A DNA stretch of 64,000 nt from a virus (lineage: Duplodnaviria; Caudoviricetes). The stretch is taken from positions 32,001 to 96,000 of the IMG/VR virus record IMGVR_UViG_3300021399_000118. One strand, given 5' to 3'. Within the stretch, counting starts at the first letter, position 1. The number at the start of each line of letters is the position of its first letter. This document shows positions 30,595 through 60,796 of this stretch, piece by piece. Position numbers and translations under genes: made by a program. The notes beneath the pieces are model-generated. The model was given only the letters and a program-made list of their open reading frames with translations, ran no database searches and was not told the origin of the DNA.

Positions 30595-33500
30595 GTGCCA
30601 ACTATGCCCATTACAGACGACAAAGGTCAGAAAAAGTTTCTTGACTCAGACGGGCTAAGTTCAATTTTAATCAAGCTTAAAACCTATATCCAGGATTCCA
30701 TCCAGACTGAGTCGGATGAGACACAGGTCAAGCTTAACAGCAAACTCAACAAACCAAACGAGGCTGGATACGAAGGCCAGGTTTTGAAAGTCGGGCAGGA
30801 TGGAAATCCTACCTGGGCGACACAGCAGTCACCTTCCGACAGTCAAGTCAGGGTGGCTGTTTATTCTTATCTGGAAAGCCATCCAACTATTCCGGCAGAA
30901 GTCGAAGACGGCTCTGTTACACAAGCCAAGCTAAGCACCGATCTTCAGCAAAAAATCGGAAACATCGCTACGCTCAGCACAAACGTCACAAATCTTCAAA
31001 CAAAAGCAGATGAGCTTGACGATGACTTAACGGCGGCCGAAGAAAGCATTACTACGCTTCAGAGCAAGGTTTCAACACTTGAAACCGGAGCTCAGACATT
31101 TACTTCTGATATCAGCGACATTCAGGACGATATTGCCGGTATTCAGGAAATCATTCCGAACTACAGCACAACCGCCCAGATGACAGCCGCAATCGAAAAC
31201 TATCTCGAGAGCGACATTGCGGACAGGTTTGATTCCGAAAAGGTCTACCTTGAAGGAGATTACGCTGTTCACGACGGCAAGCTTGTTGTCGCAAAAGAGA
31301 CTTTGTCTCCCGGAGAATGGAACGCGGAAAACTGGGAAGAGATCAAGATCGTCGATCTGATCGAGCTTCTCTCGACGGACATTCAGAACATCTCGACCGC
31401 GGCTCAGAACCATGTAAGCATTCTGCCGGAACAAGGTTTGACTTCTGAAGAAAAGACCGCAGCCCGGGCGAATATTGACGCTGCAAGCACGACGGATGTG
31501 ACAGCAGTACAAGGATCTGTCCAGGATTTACAGCAGGATTTAGAGGCGTTTGAGGACGAGGTCTCTGGTCTTATTGAACAAGGCGTTGGCCAGAGCATCC
31601 GGTACGATCAAGCTCAGACGTTGACGGACGAACAGAAGACTCAGGCCAGGGCTAATGCCGGCGCGGCCAGCTCGGCTGAAGTCGCAAACGTCCGGTCTGC
31701 AGTCGGAGACATTCAAACCCAAATTTCCCAGATGGGAGACCGGGTTACCGAAGTTGAAGCTGTTGAAGGCGGCATCCAGGTCACCTATGGAAACGGAGAC
31801 ACATCCAACATCCCGATCGAAGCGGGATCAGAACTGAACTCTGTCAGCTACGACGAAAACTACTATCTGCATTTCTACGACAAAAATGGAGATGAGTTGT
31901 ATGACGGACCGTTCTTTATTCAGGGTGGAGGCGGCGGAGGCGGCACCTCCGGCGGCATGGCAACCATTACCAGAATCACAGGAACTCCGCTGGACTGTGT
32001 GTACCAGATGCCCGCCTTGATTCGCTTTACTTTCACTGCGACAGACAGCAGCGGAGACGCGGCTGGAAACGGCGTAGGAACCTGGTCTATCGGCGGCGTA
32101 ACTGTCGCCAGGAACATTCCGATCGTACAAGGCGAGAACAGCTTTGATATTAGTCCCTATCTGAACGCAGGCGAAAACAATGTGCGGCTGAGCGTCAGTG
32201 TGGACACAGGCGGAGACACCGAAACAATCGCAAGAAAAACGTGGACAGTCAACGCTGTCAACATGCGGTTTAACTGGACTTACAACGACAGCCAAATCAA
32301 CGAGACCGACTTCCTTGACAGCTGGACGGTGTACGGCGATATCGCCAAAACGACCCATACCTCCATCGACGGAGAAGAAATCGACACGATTACCACTTCC
32401 CGATCCAACGTGACCCAGAGCATCCGGATTCCCATGCTGACGCACGGGGCGCATCAGGTTGAAAGATGGATTACCGCGACAATCGGAGAAGACGCTCAGA
32501 GCACGGAACACCAGTATCACGAGATGATCTTTGTGGAAGATGGAGACATGACGCCGATCATTGCCATCTCCATGAAGAACATCAGCATGAATCAATACGA
32601 TACGATCCGGATCCCGGTTGTGGTGTACAACCCGGCTTCCCTGCTGGCTGACGCTACGCTTTCCGTGGACGGACAGCCGGCCGGTGAATGGAGCAAGATC
32701 GACCGCTCCTTAAGATACTGGAACTACACACCATCCACTGCAGGCGATCATACACTGACGATCACCTGTGGAGAAGTATCCAGAAGCATTTCTGTTGAGG
32801 TGGAGTCCATTAATCTGGACGTTGAGGAAGTTGCCGGATATTCCTTCCGGTTTAAGTCTTCTGAGTTCGCCACCAATGAAGCAGTTCGGAACTGGACTTC
32901 CAACGGAATCAACGCCACCTTCTCCGACAACTTCAACTGGATTAACGGCGGCCTGCAAACAGAAACAGACGCAAATGGAAACCTCCAGCAGTATCTGTGC
33001 ATCAAGGCCGGGGACAGTATGACGATCAACCACAAGTTGTTTGCGACTGACCCTAAAGCCAACGGCATGACCTTCAAGATTATCTTTAAGGTTCGGAACT
33101 GCCGGAATTACGACGCACAGATCGGGCACTGCTTCTCCAATGTAGGATTGCAGATGTACGCTCACAACGCTGTCTTCAGCTCCTCCGGAATGTCGGTCAA
33201 CGTCCCCTACGGCGAAGACGAATACATCGAGCTGGAGTTCGATGTCTATCCTGCGCCGAGGCAGGAGAACGACGGAAACGTGAGATATATGATGGCCTGG
33301 ATCGACGGCGTGATTACAACCTGCCGGGTGTACGGCGAGACGGACAACTTCGTGCAGCCGGTCGCCACGCAGGAAGGAATCGTGCTTGGGTCTGAGGACT
33401 GTGATCTGTATCTCTACATGGTGAAAGCCTATCCCATGCTGGACAAGGCCAACAATTTTGACAACCACATTTCCAATTTCATCATGGATGCTCCAAACGC

Positions 33501-50012: not shown

Positions 50013-50087
50013 CTGGAACCGGCCTGGATCCATTTTGAACCCTGGAACCGTTGATTTATAAGGCTTCTGAGGTTTCTTCCTGGAACC
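50013..50087 (+). repeat. Putative integrase arm-type sites
   Basis: CTGGAACC at 50013, 50042 and 50080; CTGGATCC at 50024. Confidence 0.55.
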
Positions 50088-51294
50088 ATTTGTTCAGGCT
50101 ATTGATTGCATATTTATGCTTCATTATGCCTTCGTGTCTTGTCGGTGCATAAGTTGTTTCGACCATACGGGTATCTGCGTGTCCCATCAGGTCTGCAAGC
50201 TGAGCCGAAGACATTCCTGCTTCTTTGAGCTGTGTTCCGAAAGTAGCACGCCAGTCATGATTATCCCAGCCCTTAATATTCAACGCATTAAAGGCTTTTG
50301 AATACGTTCTTTTCAACGTTGATATTGGCGCTGGCTGACTCGGGTCTTTTCCGTGGATGATGTACCCGGAATCCCGTGCGCATGGCTCCAGGATAGAGGC
50401 CAAAGCTTCAGGAATTACAAACTCTCGGGTCGATTTTTTTGTTTTTGTCTGGTTCCGGATCACCGTCTTTTTCCCGTCCGGGTAGACAACAGTGCGGCAA
50501 ACCTCTCCGTAACGCTCTTTTAAATGAATGTGTTCCCAGCCGATTCCGGCGATTTCCTCTCTTCTCATACCGGTGTAGACCAGCAGCCCCATATAAAGTC
50601 TTTGCTGTTCGTCCTCGAGGTTTTGAAGTTCCTTTTTGACACGCAGCACGTCTTTGTCCGGAAGCGCCTTATGATGTTCAGAAACTTTTCCTTCATTTAT
50701 CAATAGCGTTTTTTTGATCGGAGAATCTGAAACAAGATTCATTTCGATCGCGATCCGATAAACACGACTAAGAAAACCGCTTACCCGGCGGATTGTGTCA
50801 GCTCTCAGGTTCATCCGGCAGCCGTGCTTCTTTGCGTTCGCCATCCAGTCATACAGATTCTGAATATCCTGCACGCTGATCTGGTCCAAATGCTTCTCAC
50901 CAAGATTAGGAAGAATGTATCGATCCAGATAAATATTGTAGTTTGCGACTGTTGTCGGAGACAAATTACGCATAAATGTTTTCCTGTAGGTGTTGTTGAT
51001 AAAATCTTTTAGCAGCGGAGCTGTTGACTTCATTCTCTCCTGAAGAAAGAGCATGAATTTCCTATCCGTATCCTTCTTGGAAAAGCCTGAGATCCTTGTT
51101 GAAGTAATCGTGCCATCCTTTTCCGTAAAGTAATATGTCTCCCGATAGTTGCTTGGCATTTCTTCTCCCCTTCTACCCTGCTCTATTTTATTATCAAGGT
51201 GCAAAAGAGAAGCAACTGCCTTTTCAGCGGCAAGTCTTGCCACCTCTTCGAGTTGATTTGGAGTATACGGTGCTTTCGGTGGATTGTCAAACAT
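50056..51294 (-). CDS. int: Tyrosine integrase
   Basis: TGMRREE (R), HDWR (HxxR), MGHAD and TTY catalytic motifs; SAM-like N-terminal domain; adjacent to attP. Confidence 0.93.
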   Translation of the reverse strand: MFDNPPKAPYTPNQLEEVARLAAEKAVASLLHLDNKIEQGRRGEEMPSNYRETYYFTEKDGTITSTRISGFSKKDTDRKFMLFLQERMKSTAPLLKDFINNTYRKTFMRNLSPTTVANYNIYLDRYILPNLGEKHLDQISVQDIQNLYDWMANAKKHGCRMNLRADTIRRVSGFLSRVYRIAIEMNLVSDSPIKKTLLINEGKVSEHHKALPDKDVLRVKKELQNLEDEQQRLYMGLLVYTGMRREEIAGIGWEHIHLKERYGEVCRTVVYPDGKKTVIRNQTKTKKSTREFVIPEALASILEPCARDSGYIIHGKDPSQPAPISTLKRTYSKAFNALNIKGWDNHDWRATFGTQLKEAGMSSAQLADLMGHADTRMVETTYAPTRHEGIMKHKYAINSLNKWFQEETSEAL

Positions 51295-51923: not shown

Positions 51924-52961
51924 TTATTCGTTTTTCAACAGGTATTTGTTGCTGACAGCTTTCATTGACAGCGGCCCGCCGATTGTTTCATTGTAGATGT
52001 TATCGACAGCCCGGATTACGATGCCTTCTTTCGGGCCACCATTCGGATATTCTCCCTCGGCCCGGGCAAGAATCGCTTCAACTGCTGGATAACGTTCAGG
52101 CAGGTCATCCCCGACTTCTTCGATCGGGACAGACTCAGCACCAATCATGCTTGCGATCATCTGCATTTTTAGCATATTCACCCGGGTTCCATTGATTCTT
52201 ACCGTGAAAACATACCATTCCGGCTTTGTCAGCTTCAGGCGATTCTTCTGGATGCCGGGAGCGCAGAACTCGCCCTGGATCGTCAGGGTCTTCAGCTCCT
52301 CAGCTTTTACATAGGCTTCCATCTTTTCCCGGAAACCCATCTTCTTGACAAACTCGTAGAAAGCGCAGGATCCGTCATCTTTATATTCGTAGTTATGTCC
52401 GCAGACATGGAATCCATTCTCGTCGATAGAGATGGAGTGGGACGAGCCATCCATCTTTGTGCTGATATAATACGGAATACCTTTGAAGGCTTCCGCAAAC
52501 TCCGGGAAGTTCTGCACCCGGATCTCGTCAGTATGGGGCACGTCGTAAGGCAGAAGTCCGATTACTGTTCCTCCGGTTGTGGCCTTCTCTTCAATCTCCC
52601 ACTTTCTCACCTTCAGAAGCTCGGTCACGTCCTGTCCAAGCTCCGGAGATTCAATTTCCGGAAAATCAGACAACGGCAGAAGCAAGCCCTGGGAAACGAC
52701 ACCCCTCAGCTTCAGTGTTTTCAGCCGGAAACCCTCTCCCATAATGTCTGTGTTTTTGTAGCTGGTCTTTCTCAGAAACTCAAACCTTTCGTCGATTGGA
52801 AGAAAAGAGTCGATCTCGAAATAGACAGCCAGGTCCATCGGCTGGAACTGTCCCTTCGGAACTACGCAGACCCAGCCTTCGACATAGGCTTTTTCCAGCC
52901 TGTCGGCTCCATCAATAGGTTCGATCTTCCAAATCTTTTGTATGCTTGCGAGTTTTCTCAT
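51924..52961 (-). CDS. ATP-dependent RNA ligase (DRB0094/Rnl2-like family)
   Basis: MRKLASIQ..PI.GAD.LE N-terminal domain; motif I TKMDGSS; QGEFC.PGIQKN; EGIVIR; SMKAVSNKYL. Confidence 0.88.
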   Translation of the reverse strand: MRKLASIQKIWKIEPIDGADRLEKAYVEGWVCVVPKGQFQPMDLAVYFEIDSFLPIDERFEFLRKTSYKNTDIMGEGFRLKTLKLRGVVSQGLLLPLSDFPEIESPELGQDVTELLKVRKWEIEEKATTGGTVIGLLPYDVPHTDEIRVQNFPEFAEAFKGIPYYISTKMDGSSHSISIDENGFHVCGHNYEYKDDGSCAFYEFVKKMGFREKMEAYVKAEELKTLTIQGEFCAPGIQKNRLKLTKPEWYVFTVRINGTRVNMLKMQMIASMIGAESVPIEEVGDDLPERYPAVEAILARAEGEYPNGGPKEGIVIRAVDNIYNETIGGPLSMKAVSNKYLLKNE

Positions 52962-53142
52962 GCAAGTCCTCCTCGATTTCGATGTTGCAGCTTCCATTCA
53001 CGCGGATGATATTGTCTGCCCAGTTGGAAAGCTGCTGAATTGATCCTTTTGCTGTCAGTATTCTTCCTCCGCGAATAATCGCTTTTCCGAAATACTCAGT
53101 ATCATCCATAAACCTCGTTCTCCTTGACATAAAAATAACCAA
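52912..53142 (-). CDS. Hypothetical protein; start probably at 53109
   Basis: ORF with RBS, overlapping the ligase start. Confidence 0.45.
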   Translation of the reverse strand: MVIFMSRRTRFMDDTEYFGKAIIRGGRILTAKGSIQQLSNWADNIIRVNGSCNIEIEEDLHEKTRKHTKDLEDRTY

Positions 53143-57500: not shown

Positions 57501-57537
57501 TTATTTCGCCTCCTCAATCTATTCATGCTATTTGTAG

Positions 57538-57610
57538 TACTACCGCCCGGATTCGAACCGGGAATCTTCGGCTTATAAGGCCGCGGCTCTGACCCTTGAG
57601 CTACGGTAGC
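57538..57610 (-). tRNA. trnI: tRNA-Ile(UAU)
   Basis: GCTACCG-TA-GCTC..GAGC-C-GCGGC-CT TAT AA-GCCGA-AGATT-CCCGG-TTCGAAT-CCGGG-CGGTAGT-A; CCA not encoded. Confidence 0.85.
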
Positions 57611-57617
57611 ATATTCA

Positions 57618-57797
57618 GTGAGGTGCGCCATAACTGCGACACCTCACCTACTCCTGCTAATCACATCGTGCCGGACACTACTCCGCCTTGATATGCAACC
57701 TCGGAGACGGCAGAGGCATGGTCGCGTACTTCAACCTTGTCCTTGATCCGTTGGTGAGACGGACTGTAACAAGGCGGCTCCGTGTTTCGCTTGCCGG
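57618..57797 (-). ncRNA. Unidentified structured RNA between the two tRNAs
   Basis: Nested stems CCGG/CCGG, ACAC/GTGT and CCGCCTTG/CAAGGCGG enclosing hairpins; separate GTGAGGTG/CACCTCAC hairpin. Confidence 0.45.
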
Positions 57798-57805
57798 TTA
57801 TAGAT

Positions 57806-57879
57806 TGGCAGGATGACTGTGAATCGAACACAGGCCTGCGGTTTTGGAGACCGCCGTTCTGCCACTAAACTATCATCCT
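57806..57879 (-). tRNA. trnW: tRNA-Trp(CCA)
   Basis: AGGATGA...GCGGT-CT CCA AA-ACCGC...CTGTG-TTCGATT-CACAG-TCATCCT-G-CCA. Confidence 0.92.
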
Positions 57880-57886
57880 TAATTAA

Positions 57887-58007
57887 ATGCGGGTAAGGAT
57901 TTGCACCTTACATAACAGGATAACGGACTCCCTGTCTCCCTATTCACGCTCCATTTTGCCGAAGGTTTGGCGTTTTCGGTCAGCGTATACCTTTTCCGCC
58001 ACCGCAT
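57887..58007 (-). ncRNA. tRNA-like RNA A (121 nt, no canonical anticodon arm)
   Basis: ATGCGG-TG-GCGGAAAAGGTATACGC D-arm; GTAAGG-TGCAAAT-CCTTAC T-arm; CCGCAT; ends 7 nt upstream of tRNA-Trp. Confidence 0.65.
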
Positions 58008-58346
58008 ATGTCATTCTTTAATCACATAGCTTTGTTATGATTGCGCCTGTCAGAACTCCTATGCAAAGAATCAAAACTGCCATTTGTCCATCCATGCGTT
58101 CGCCCGTCCTTTAAGTCACTTCGTTTTCTACCTCGTTTAATGTTGCCATTATGTTAATATAGAGCATATTTAAGTTACATCCACGGTCTATTCCCAATGA
58201 CCGCTTGCGCTTCCTCGTAGCACAAAATTCTGAACCACTCCCATTTGCTGAAAATCCGGTCGAACTTTTTGTGGCGAATGATAAACCTAAGAACACCTCG
58301 AATGTATTTGTGCATTGATCTCACCTCGTGTTATTCCTGCCATTGT

Positions 58347-58535
58347 TTAATTATATCCCACCCATCCGCAATCGCATTCATATTGACTTTGTGGAGGATA
58401 TGAAGCAAGAATAATATCGGTTCTTACATAAATTTTCTTTCCGCATTTGGGACAATCGATATCTGTTATTTTTCTTTTTGAATTATTGATGTAATATTCT
58501 TTTAGGCTCATTTTCTCAAATTCTTCCCAAGTCAT
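58347..58535 (-). CDS. Zn-ribbon protein
   Basis: CPKCG...L.SYPP...Y.C.CGW. Confidence 0.7.
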   Translation of the reverse strand: MTWEEFEKMSLKEYYINNSKRKITDIDCPKCGKKIYVRTDIILASYPPQSQYECDCGWVGYN

Positions 58536-58698
58536 TATTAAATCCTCCCAACTTCACCTTCTGACCACATTTAGGGCAATAATGTAAGTCATCATCGTCT
58601 CCCATCATCCATGTACATTCACACTTTGGGCAAAGCACAACGGTACCATAATACTCATCCACCCAGTTTCTTACTTGTAAAGCTTCGTCATTACTCAT
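58516..58698 (-). CDS. Zn-ribbon protein; start reassigned to MSNDEAL
   Basis: RBS AGGAGG before ATG 58698; CPKC...YCPKCGQKV. Confidence 0.65.
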   Translation of the reverse strand: MSNDEALQVRNWVDEYYGTVVLCPKCECTWMMGDDDDLHYCPKCGQKVKLGGFNNDLGRI

Positions 58699-58717
58699 TC
58701 CTGTATCTCCTCCTAAA

Positions 58718-58908
58718 ATGCGGGTAGGGATTTGCACCCTACATAACAGACTGTGTACCGTTCGGCTGCTCCGTCTGCCTCGTGTTCGGCTCTGCCTAGC
58801 GTCTACTTTAGCCGTGACCTGCGCCCCTGTAGTCAGGTGTACTTGGATGAGAGTCACGCCCTTATCTACTCTCCGCAGGAATGATGGCAATCTATTCCGC
58901 CACCGCAT
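58718..58908 (-). ncRNA. tRNA-like RNA B (191 nt, ~80-nt structured insert in the D-loop)
   Basis: Same ends as element A with a compensatory T-stem change (GTAGGG/CCCTAC); lies between two CDS. Confidence 0.65.
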
Positions 58909-58912
58909 TAAG

Positions 58913-60232: not shown

Positions 60233-60796
60233 CTATATTCCGTCTATTTTTGAAACCAACATATCCGCCTGATGAGTCCAAAGTACGTTGGGATATTTGC
60301 GAATCGCCCGATCAAAGCCCTTCCAGTCATTGGTTTCGTAGGCTCCCATGTGATACCGTATGCAGAGAACCTCTTCCTCTGTCAGAGACATATACTGGGA
60401 CAGAATCATAATTGATTTGGTTCCGTGTCCCTCCAGCAGAAGATCTTCATTGCGCTCATACTTCTTTGGCTCTTCGCCTTTGAGCGCTGCCATCGTATCG
60501 AAAGGGATCTCGATATACTGGTCGCACTTGCAGAGATCATGGAACATCCCCACAACGAACGGGCTGCAGTCTCTCTTCCAGGTAAGATGATTATCCAAGG
60601 TTATGTCTGCCAGCCGGGTGTATACGGTAAGGGAGTGATCAAAGAGGCCTCCCTCGTAGGCTCCGTGGAATCTTGTGGAAGCCGGAGCCGTAAAGAAGCC
60701 AAGCTCCTCAAGCTGGTCGGCGGAAACGGTAACTTCCGGATATTTCAATTTAATCTTGTCATACAGTTCCTTGCGGTATTTCAGCGTCATCGGCAT
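60233..60796 (-). CDS. HD-domain phosphohydrolase
   Basis: FFTAPAS..FHG...GGL..HS; FHDLCK; GHG.KS; IRYHMG; H.AD. Confidence 0.88.
   Translation of the reverse strand: MPMTLKYRKELYDKIKLKYPEVTVSADQLEELGFFTAPASTRFHGAYEGGLFDHSLTVYTRLADITLDNHLTWKRDCSPFVVGMFHDLCKCDQYIEIPFDTMAALKGEEPKKYERNEDLLLEGHGTKSIMILSQYMSLTEEEVLCIRYHMGAYETNDWKGFDRAIRKYPNVLWTHQADMLVSKIDGI

Follow-up and report, generated by a model that had tools for sequence, protein, structure and literature searches.

We analysed a 64,000-nt stretch of phage DNA (Duplodnaviria; Caudoviricetes; positions 32,001 to 96,000 of IMG/VR record IMGVR_UViG_3300021399_000118; hereafter the window) and identified two elements on its minus strand, A and B (Table 1). 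Comparative sequence analysis confirmed them as predicted, conserved RNA genes in which the top half of a tRNA-Leu is retained and a swappable, folded insert replaces the anticodon arm. They are putative genes for non-decoding, tRNA-Leu-derived RNAs, since an RNA without an anticodon cannot read codons. There is little doubt that A and B belong to a conserved family of non-decoding tRNA-like RNAs, and this family is large in phages of Gram-positive (Bacillota) bacteria and apparently undescribed.

A first-pass annotation of the window had proposed A and B as paralogous tRNA-shaped RNAs without an anticodon arm and without an encoded CCA, a description that was borne out, with the extent of each element being one base further on both sides than initially thought (57886-58008 and 58717-58909). 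The sequence blocks on which it rested are all present on the minus strand of both elements: the 5' end (N-AUGCGG-UG-GCGGAA), the D-arm closure (GUA(U/G)ACGCU) and the 3' end (CUGUUAU-GUA(A/G)GG-UGCAAAU-CC(U/C)UAC-CCGCAU-U), and the A:T to G:C change between the two T-stems is real. Two perfect copies of the 14-nt 5' motif (ATGCGG-TG-GCGGAA), and no more, are present in the window (57994-58007 and 58895-58908), and when up to two mismatches are allowed there are three matches against 0.29 expected, a number that was reached in none of 100 shuffles; the recurrence of this architecture in hundreds of further phage sequences puts the match between A and B far beyond chance. Folds constrained by the family structure have energies of -32.7 kcal/mol (A) and -59.2 kcal/mol (B), which is 4-8 kcal/mol above the unconstrained optimum and which we take as usual for tRNA D-arms. 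The outermost pair 1:72 is a U-U mismatch in A and A-U in B. Within the fold, the centre of A contains a hairpin CCGAA/UUCGG with an 11-nt loop and then a longer hairpin that closes just before UAU and the T-arm. The insert that had been noticed in the D-loop of B is 85 nt long (58807-58891) and contains both claimed stems (CCTGCG/CGCAGG and GAGAGT/ACTCTC). As anticipated, ARAGORN was silent on A and B and called only a tRNA-Trp and a tRNA-Ile(TAT) in the window; at gathering score Rfam 15 likewise gave these two tRNAs alone, and relaxing the threshold to E ≤ 10 brought up no match on A or B; a match to a known family had been named beforehand as the outcome that would speak against the proposal.

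The phage carries four copies, all on the minus strand, in its 120.9-kb IMG/VR record, the other two being located at C1:9937-10052 (61 nt after a tRNA-Thr) and C1:1291-1398. Beyond this phage, a 21-nt 3' motif was found without mismatch in 53 IMG/VR contigs and a 19-nt 5' motif in at least 119. The 5' motif was also found in 66 contigs of species genomes, around 45 of which contain family members, almost all from Bacillota; the taxa included Bacillus, Paenibacillus, Cohnella, Levilactobacillus, Oscillospiraceae, Lachnospiraceae, Ruminococcus and Christensenella. Among these species-genome matches, true tRNA-Leu genes with the family 5' end came from Patescibacteria only. Pattern-based extraction yielded 161 distinct elements of 73-227 nt, 113 of them with non-redundant centres; the samples are motif-anchored. 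A BLAST search of INPHARED at the lax threshold of E ≤ 1 returned 96 records, many of them ordinary tRNA-Leu genes (27 Synechococcus among them). The deposited phages that were confirmed by the covariance model R1 (see below) are phi3T and Goe3 only; partial BLAST matches, outside this model check, were obtained for SBSphiJ and relatives, Enterococcus phage phiSHEF16, Lactobacillus phages, a Geobacillus phage and D6E. The members include laboratory models (phi3T, the SPO1-like phage Goe3 and, probably, the likewise SPO1-like SBSphiJ), and their occurrence in cultured B. subtilis phages makes the function directly testable. In the two records that were opened, those of phi3T and Goe3, the site is either blank or lies under a short "hypothetical protein", and tRNA finders and Rfam miss these genes. 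If the family is what it appears to be, many Bacillota phages carry an unannotated class of RNA genes built on a tRNA shell. A literature search by sequence motif and keywords found no description of the family. PMC10690425 reports thousands of candidate phage RNAs, tRNA-like ones included, none of which could be tied to the present family.

The core was examined in an alignment of 54 members with non-redundant centres, in which the acceptor, D and T helices were tested. The fraction of helix cells that pair was 98.0%, against 88.1% in shuffles; changes on both sides affected 8 pairs (91 cells), which was reached in none of 500 shuffles; and when the partners were slid by 1-3 columns, pairing fell to 35-49%. 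All one-sided changes were G-U and never A-C, and this restriction to G-U points to selection on the RNA of this strand, not on the DNA. Each element keeps U8 and G9 after a 7-bp acceptor, a Leu-type D-arm, U48 and the T-arm, with A14, A15, G18, G19 and the U that precedes the T-stem and partners A15 being invariant. Acceptor pairs 1-7 are paired in 95.8%, with covariation at 1:72 and 2:71; D-stem pairs 10:26, 11:25 and 12:24 in 100%, with double changes from C-G to U-A; and the 6-bp T-stem in 99.7%, with double changes at four of its six pairs. The T-loop reads UGCAAAU in 112 of 127 elements of a 5'-anchored sample, in which the T-loop was not forced. N1:N72 is a Watson-Crick pair in 97 of 127 elements where 45 are expected, the pair beyond it is weakly enriched and the one beyond that is not; the covariation of N1:N72 implies an acceptor/T helix of 7 + 6 = 13 bp. 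Of the 6/6 division that had been proposed originally, the six-pair T-stem was retained and the six-pair acceptor was not, although a discriminator that pairs with position -1 would fit the data as well as the 7/6 division does.

Building a covariance model, from A and B, had also been suggested, and the model obtained here from the 54 aligned members, R1, with E-values that are rough, scored A (in the training set) at 77 bits (E 4e-18). Of the sequences that were not in the training set, B reached 58.3 bits (E 4e-13), the phi3T element 70 bits, the Goe3 element 61 bits and two Patescibacteria tRNA-Leu genes that share the 5' half 45-51 bits, and the T4 genome gave no match. The covariation also bears on three mundane explanations, i.e. 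decayed tRNA pseudogenes, a small protein gene or a DNA-level site (att, cos), which taken together we find barely credible. Element A does hold an ATG-to-TAA frame of 42 codons (57879-58007), and the vicinity of some elements includes an integrase gene, a terminase gene or the end of the contig. Yet all three helices show compensatory changes, and one-sided ones are confined to G-U, which argues against both a DNA site and decay, the latter having been listed in the first-pass annotation as a potential refutation, and the family is kept in hundreds of phages, virulent ones included. Protein coding was rejected because the 3' block that the two elements share is read in a different frame in each; the element lengths, moreover, show no 3-nt periodicity.

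Between the D-arm and the T-arm, a 5-bp/7-nt anticodon arm is absent from every member, and neither ARAGORN nor RF00005 made a call even on the shortest ones (73-87 nt). This makes it very improbable that the elements are interrupted tRNA genes, in which the centre would be an intron or another removable insert and splicing would yield a decoding tRNA-Leu. The D-arm is indeed of the tRNA-Leu type and bacterial and phage tRNA genes can hold group I introns, but no exon sequence can make the anticodon arm, a group I intron would not fit into most of the inserts (~20-175 nt), no match to an intron family was found at E ≤ 10, the shortest members still fail RF00005 and the T-stem has six pairs, not five. 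An intron-containing tRNA had been the other potential refutation, and it found no support in A and B.

Table 1. Positions of the two elements and their parts, of neighbouring genes in the window and of tandem arrays in other phage loci.
Feature	Position	Strand	Basis
Element A, whole tRNA-like RNA (123 nt)	57886-58008	-	family model R1 and constrained fold
A, acceptor 5' strand N1-G7 (partner 57886-57892)	58002-58008	-	1:72 and 2:71 covary across the family
A, tRNA-Leu-type D-arm GCGGAAAAGGUAUACGC	57983-57999	-	D-stem pairs 10:26, 11:25, 12:24; invariant A14, A15, G18, G19
A, variable centre (71 nt), without anticodon arm	57912-57982	-	folds
A, T-arm: 6-bp stem GUAAGG/CCUUAC, loop UGCAAAU	57893-57911	-	stem covariation; common family loop
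Element B, whole tRNA-like RNA (193 nt)	58717-58909	-	R1 and constrained fold
B, structured 85-nt D-loop insert between G18 and G19	58807-58891	-	kept in the L006 relative
B, variable centre (56 nt) between D-arm and T-arm	58743-58798	-	fold
B, T-arm: GUAGGG/CCCUAC, loop UGCAAAU	58724-58742	-	sequence and family covariation
tRNA-Trp(CCA), 6 nt past the last base of A	57806-57879	-	ARAGORN and Rfam (66 bits)
tRNA-Ile(TAT), 195 nt further downstream	57537-57610	-	ARAGORN and Rfam
Integrase	50056-51294	-	phrog_1, E 4e-46; same strand block as A and B
RNA ligase	51924-52997	-	phrog_968, E 4e-67; same strand block as A and B
HD-type metal-dependent phosphohydrolase	60233-60796	-	E 4e-28; same strand block as A and B
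Array loci in other phages	L012:3559-3925; L181:4148-4556; L224:7368-7783; L085:11363-11737; L018:2079-2425		

The part of the RNA that replaces the anticodon arm follows a loose plan. In many members it starts with a short linker, often a mini-hairpin of 4-5 bp (CUUAU/AUAAG, CUUAA/UUAAG) together with a TAAGR word, and then continues with a helical domain of very varied length and sequence that closes 2-3 bases (YAU) ahead of the T-stem, as a class II variable arm does. A few members (B, L012, L018 and L028) have a second insert between the two G's of the D-loop. The one in B recurs in a second element, from a related 124.6-kb phage (L006:3737-3929) with 79% identity over 84 nt (E 8e-10); the hairpin GAGAGU/ACUCUC is changed there to GGUAGU/GUUACC, and its 13-nt loop AGAUAAGGGCGUG is unchanged. 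The centre of B is unlike that of A and unlike that of this relative, and for the centre of A no similar insert was found in any fetched locus. The most telling comparison is that between phi3T (a temperate Spbetavirus) and Goe3 (a virulent phage of the Herelleviridae), two B. subtilis phages that are otherwise unrelated and that share ~90% of the insert. Their centres are near-identical base for base, one loop excepted, whereas the stems differ in a compensatory manner: acceptor AAUGCGG versus UGUGUGG, D-stem GCG/CGC versus GUG/CAC and T-stem GGGAGG versus GCUAGG. A neutral spacer would diverge at least as much as the stems, and the tighter conservation of the insert therefore indicates that the centre is under selection. 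One insert subfamily of rumen phages keeps its single-stranded blocks. Conserved inserts linked to the host in this way would suggest a new layer of phage-host interaction.

As a separate observation, a subset of the inserts contains an internal canonical T-arm motif, GGTTCGAWTCC (L038, L062, L065, L067, L080, L092, L097, L127, L135, L153, L192, L206, L217 and L225). These elements carry two T-arm-like hairpins and perhaps represent a nested or duplicated tRNA-like module.

The genomic arrangement of the elements resembles that of tRNAs. The spacing of A to the tRNA-Trp gene that follows it is typical of a tRNA array; in 14 of the 161 elements a tRNA on the same strand starts 0-10 nt after N72, and in six a tRNA ends 1-8 nt before N1. 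We also found arrays in which two to three tRNA-like units with different centres follow one another in tandem, usually at a distance of 4-8 nt (~40 nt at most). The array neighbours carry other acceptor sequences, some of them with a UUCAAAU loop, and since such units combine other acceptors with this canonical T-loop, the superfamily should be wider than the motif-anchored sample. From the tRNA-array spacing we infer that the elements are processed by RNase P and RNase Z.

Taken together, the best explanation seems to be that of a non-decoding tRNA shell that is cut out by tRNA-processing enzymes and displays a lineage-specific RNA domain; we propose it tentatively, at somewhat less than an even chance. 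The RNA would be transcribed together with the neighbouring genes and tRNAs and excised by the host enzymes that mature tRNAs, with RNase P producing the 5' end and the 3' end resulting from RNase Z, from exonucleases or from the RNase P cut of the next tRNA. The compact tRNA core would then be the stable shell that presents the variable domain, and the latter would be the working part, acting in trans on a host-specific or lineage-specific partner. Among the roles that the first-pass annotation had offered, a scaffold for cargo received the most support, from the insert that is more conserved than the stems (phi3T/Goe3) and from the compensatory changes in the D-loop insert of B.

Several results weigh against this proposal. 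A 6-mer enrichment across the 113 non-redundant inserts brought up no motif common to them. What it did return were words at the junctions (TAAGA/G following the D-arm and YCAT preceding the T-arm), GTTCGA, which appears internally now and then, and CTGAAA, with a weak signal. A search of the whole phage genome for antisense matches to the inserts of its four copies gave nothing significant (the longest exact one is 13 nt, E ~0.3), and the Bacillus insert matches only itself in the host genome, with no second copy. The base after N72 is not conserved (T 48%, A 35%, G 9%, C 8%), and in two arrays the next tRNA follows right after N72, which leaves the mature 3' end uncertain. The constancy of acceptor pairs 3-7 is of no help either, as both search motifs contain them, and its interpretation as sequence-specific recognition was rejected for that reason. 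Finally, the sequence of the D-arm and T-loop is tighter than a mere shell needs, which favours a partner that reads the core.

This last point leads to a different possibility, to which we give perhaps one chance in a few: the conserved tRNA core is itself the working part and acts as a decoy or sponge that occupies a host factor reading the tRNA elbow or the acceptor end, the centre being merely a tolerated arm. Candidates for such a factor are an anti-phage toxin that acts on acceptor ends or class II tRNAs, LeuRS, or a tRNA-processing or -modifying enzyme. Both the D-arm (in the 3'-anchored set) and the T-loop are near-invariant in samples in which the pattern did not force them, the lack of an anticodon and the 13-bp acceptor/T helix would bar use in translation, and E. 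coli LeuRS needs neither the anticodon nor the variable arm. T4-type RNA ligases are known for tRNA repair; the RNA ligase encoded in the same strand block as A and B hints at RNA or tRNA repair in this phage and would fit pressure from tRNA-damaging defences. However, a neutral arm would not be held tighter than the stems as it is in phi3T and Goe3, the discriminator is not conserved (A73, the identity base of tRNA-Leu, occurs in ~35% only), an RNA ligase does not regularly accompany the family (the genes around the 161 elements gave a single weak match) and a divergent relative in Listeria phage P100 (see below) lacks the GG of the D-loop.

The positions relative to protein-coding genes relate to a further possibility, that of processing punctuation, in which the element would be a tRNA-shaped signal in cis at which RNase P and RNase Z cut a polycistronic transcript and set the ends and the stability of the mRNAs, the RNA itself being a by-product. 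About 80% of the elements have the same orientation as both flanking open reading frames (ORFs), a quarter lies within 15 nt of the upstream ORF and for a quarter the downstream ORF starts within ~50 nt. From the end of B it is 18 nt to the start codon of the gene that follows (58516-58698), with the Shine-Dalgarno sequence GGAGGAG in between. In temperate phages the element tends to be located just upstream of packaging genes that share its strand, namely those for an HNH endonuclease (clusters in 14 loci) and for the small (16 loci) and large (13 loci) terminase subunits. Recognisable promoters of their own are rare: under strict criteria neither promoters (3/131 versus 1/131 in the control) nor terminators (2/131 versus 2/131) were enriched, and there were a few clear single cases. 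Against punctuation it can be held that a cleavage signal would need neither conserved inserts nor a special T-loop nor tandem arrays of two to three units with different inserts, that ordinary tRNAs already provide cut sites inside tRNA arrays, and that the genes downstream are highly diverse; we consider it unlikely. The first downstream ORFs fall in tiny clusters only, and a role as leader for one gene family was rejected on that basis.

The proposal of an excised shell with a working insert can be extended to that of a natural modular platform, which we regard as possible but doubtful. A Leu-tRNA shell, which the tRNA-processing enzymes of the host release and stabilise, would then carry a swappable library of effector RNAs at two insertion sites in phages of Bacillota; the effector domains, often placed in tandem arrays, could be aptamers, antisense loops or protein-binding modules, each with a host-specific or competitor-specific target. 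If true, the platform would constitute a new class of trans-acting phage RNA and a natural counterpart of engineered tRNA scaffolds and tRNA-guide arrays, i.e. nature may have reached the tRNA-scaffold trick of RNA engineering.

We compared the family with known RNAs that have a tRNA-like shape or position. The closest relative in shape is class II tRNA-Leu (RF00005), though its defining features fail. The two have in common the 7-bp acceptor, U8, a D-arm near-identical to GGCGGAAUAGGUAGACGC, A14, A15:U48, G18G19, T-loop positions U54, C56 and A58, and the location in tRNA arrays with tRNA-like spacing. The family differs in lacking an anticodon arm, a conserved discriminator and an encoded CCA, in the 6-bp T-stem (not 5 bp) and 13-bp acceptor/T helix, in the G that replaces U at T-loop position 55, and in not being found by ARAGORN or RF00005. 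In tRNA-Sec the helix is also 13 bp but it is split 8/5, with a 6-bp D-stem and a UCA anticodon, as compared to 7/6, a D-stem of 3-4 bp and no anticodon in the family; no Rfam match to tRNA-Sec was found on A or B at E ≤ 10. The other comparisons concern analogues, not relatives. The T4 RNAs rnaC and rnaD (species 1/2 RNA) are likewise small stable RNAs other than tRNAs, with no assigned function; they close a phage tRNA cluster whose strand they share, and rnaC ends in a tRNA-type T-arm; it has, however, a canonical UUCGAAU loop, no Leu-type D-arm and a host of another phylum, and the family sequences, in line with the absence of an R1 match in the whole T4 genome, are unlike rnaC and rnaD; the analogy is one of position alone. 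The tRNA-like domain of tmRNA, which is matured by tRNA-processing enzymes, is also a tRNA top half without an anticodon arm and with a long helix at the place of the class II variable arm. The family differs from it in having U:A instead of G3:U70 as pair 3:70, a D-arm that forms a true stem-loop and a much shorter centre, and in lacking a tag frame and pseudoknots; ARAGORN and Rfam report no tmRNA. Non-decoding tRNA-like folds that are recognised by RNase P and RNase Z are known from mitochondrial punctuation, plant t-elements and mascRNA; such processing signals have neither conserved lineage-specific inserts nor tandem arrays of varied centres. In engineered tRNA scaffolds and polycistronic tRNA-guide arrays, cargo replaces the anticodon arm of a tRNA shell, the design makes use of tRNA processing by the host and of the stability of tRNAs, and tandem units are freed by RNase P and RNase Z; these are man-made, whereas the family is natural, with a Leu-type class II shell and two insert sites (centre and D-loop). 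Y RNAs (YrlA) are reported (PMC4201824) to be non-coding RNAs with a tRNA-mimicking module and to occur in phages too. In YrlA both termini of the RNA sit in the Ro-binding stem and the tRNA-like part is closed on the acceptor side, whereas the termini of the family RNAs pair to make the acceptor stem. Rfam gave no match to a Y RNA, and a Ro60 partner was rejected, as the phage record (86% complete) contains no match to a Ro60 (TROVE) gene.

A divergent relative was observed in Listeria phage P100 (L234:1501-1641, corresponding to NC_007610:126403-126543, minus strand), in a tRNA cluster immediately upstream of tRNA-Asn. It scores 31 bits with R1 and has a 7/6 helix with acceptor AUACUCG/CGAGUAU, a D-loop without GG and the T-loop UGAAAAU; across 40 Listeria phage records, identity in the element and its flanks is 99% or more. 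For a sister phage of the P100 type, PMC12282133 reports unannotated transcripts of very high abundance close to the tRNA genes, one of which may be this relative.

Some further features of the surroundings were recorded. The anticodon TAT of the tRNA-Ile next to A reads AUA directly, and the same unusual tRNA is present in L006, L016, L017, L018, L034, L036, L037, L049 and L053. The 195-nt non-coding spacer between tRNA-Trp and tRNA-Ile (57611-57805, minus strand) folds with -66.7 kcal/mol (z -1.9) and is without an Rfam match. Its last part is a strong hairpin of 9 bp (GUGAGGUG.../...CACCUCAC) that directly precedes tRNA-Ile, and the spacer could represent a further small RNA. Directly after B there are two genes of ~60 amino acids (58516-58698 and 58347-58535, minus strand) with paired CxxC motifs (CPKC...CPKC) and the look of a zinc ribbon. 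Outside the window, ~900 nt downstream of the fourth copy, lies a tRNA-Leu(TAA) of 74 nt (C1:322-395), which is of class I length and without the long variable arm. In phi3T, a match to the Rfam DUF3800-VIII RNA (L226:4363-4428; 44.7 bits, above the gathering score) is located ~1.2 kb downstream of the element. Three element-bearing rumen phages contain tRNAs with anticodon CTA that ARAGORN labelled Pyl (L017:5784-5872, L049:7779-7870 and L053:2031-2120); these are probably amber-suppressor tRNAs of TAG-recoding phages.

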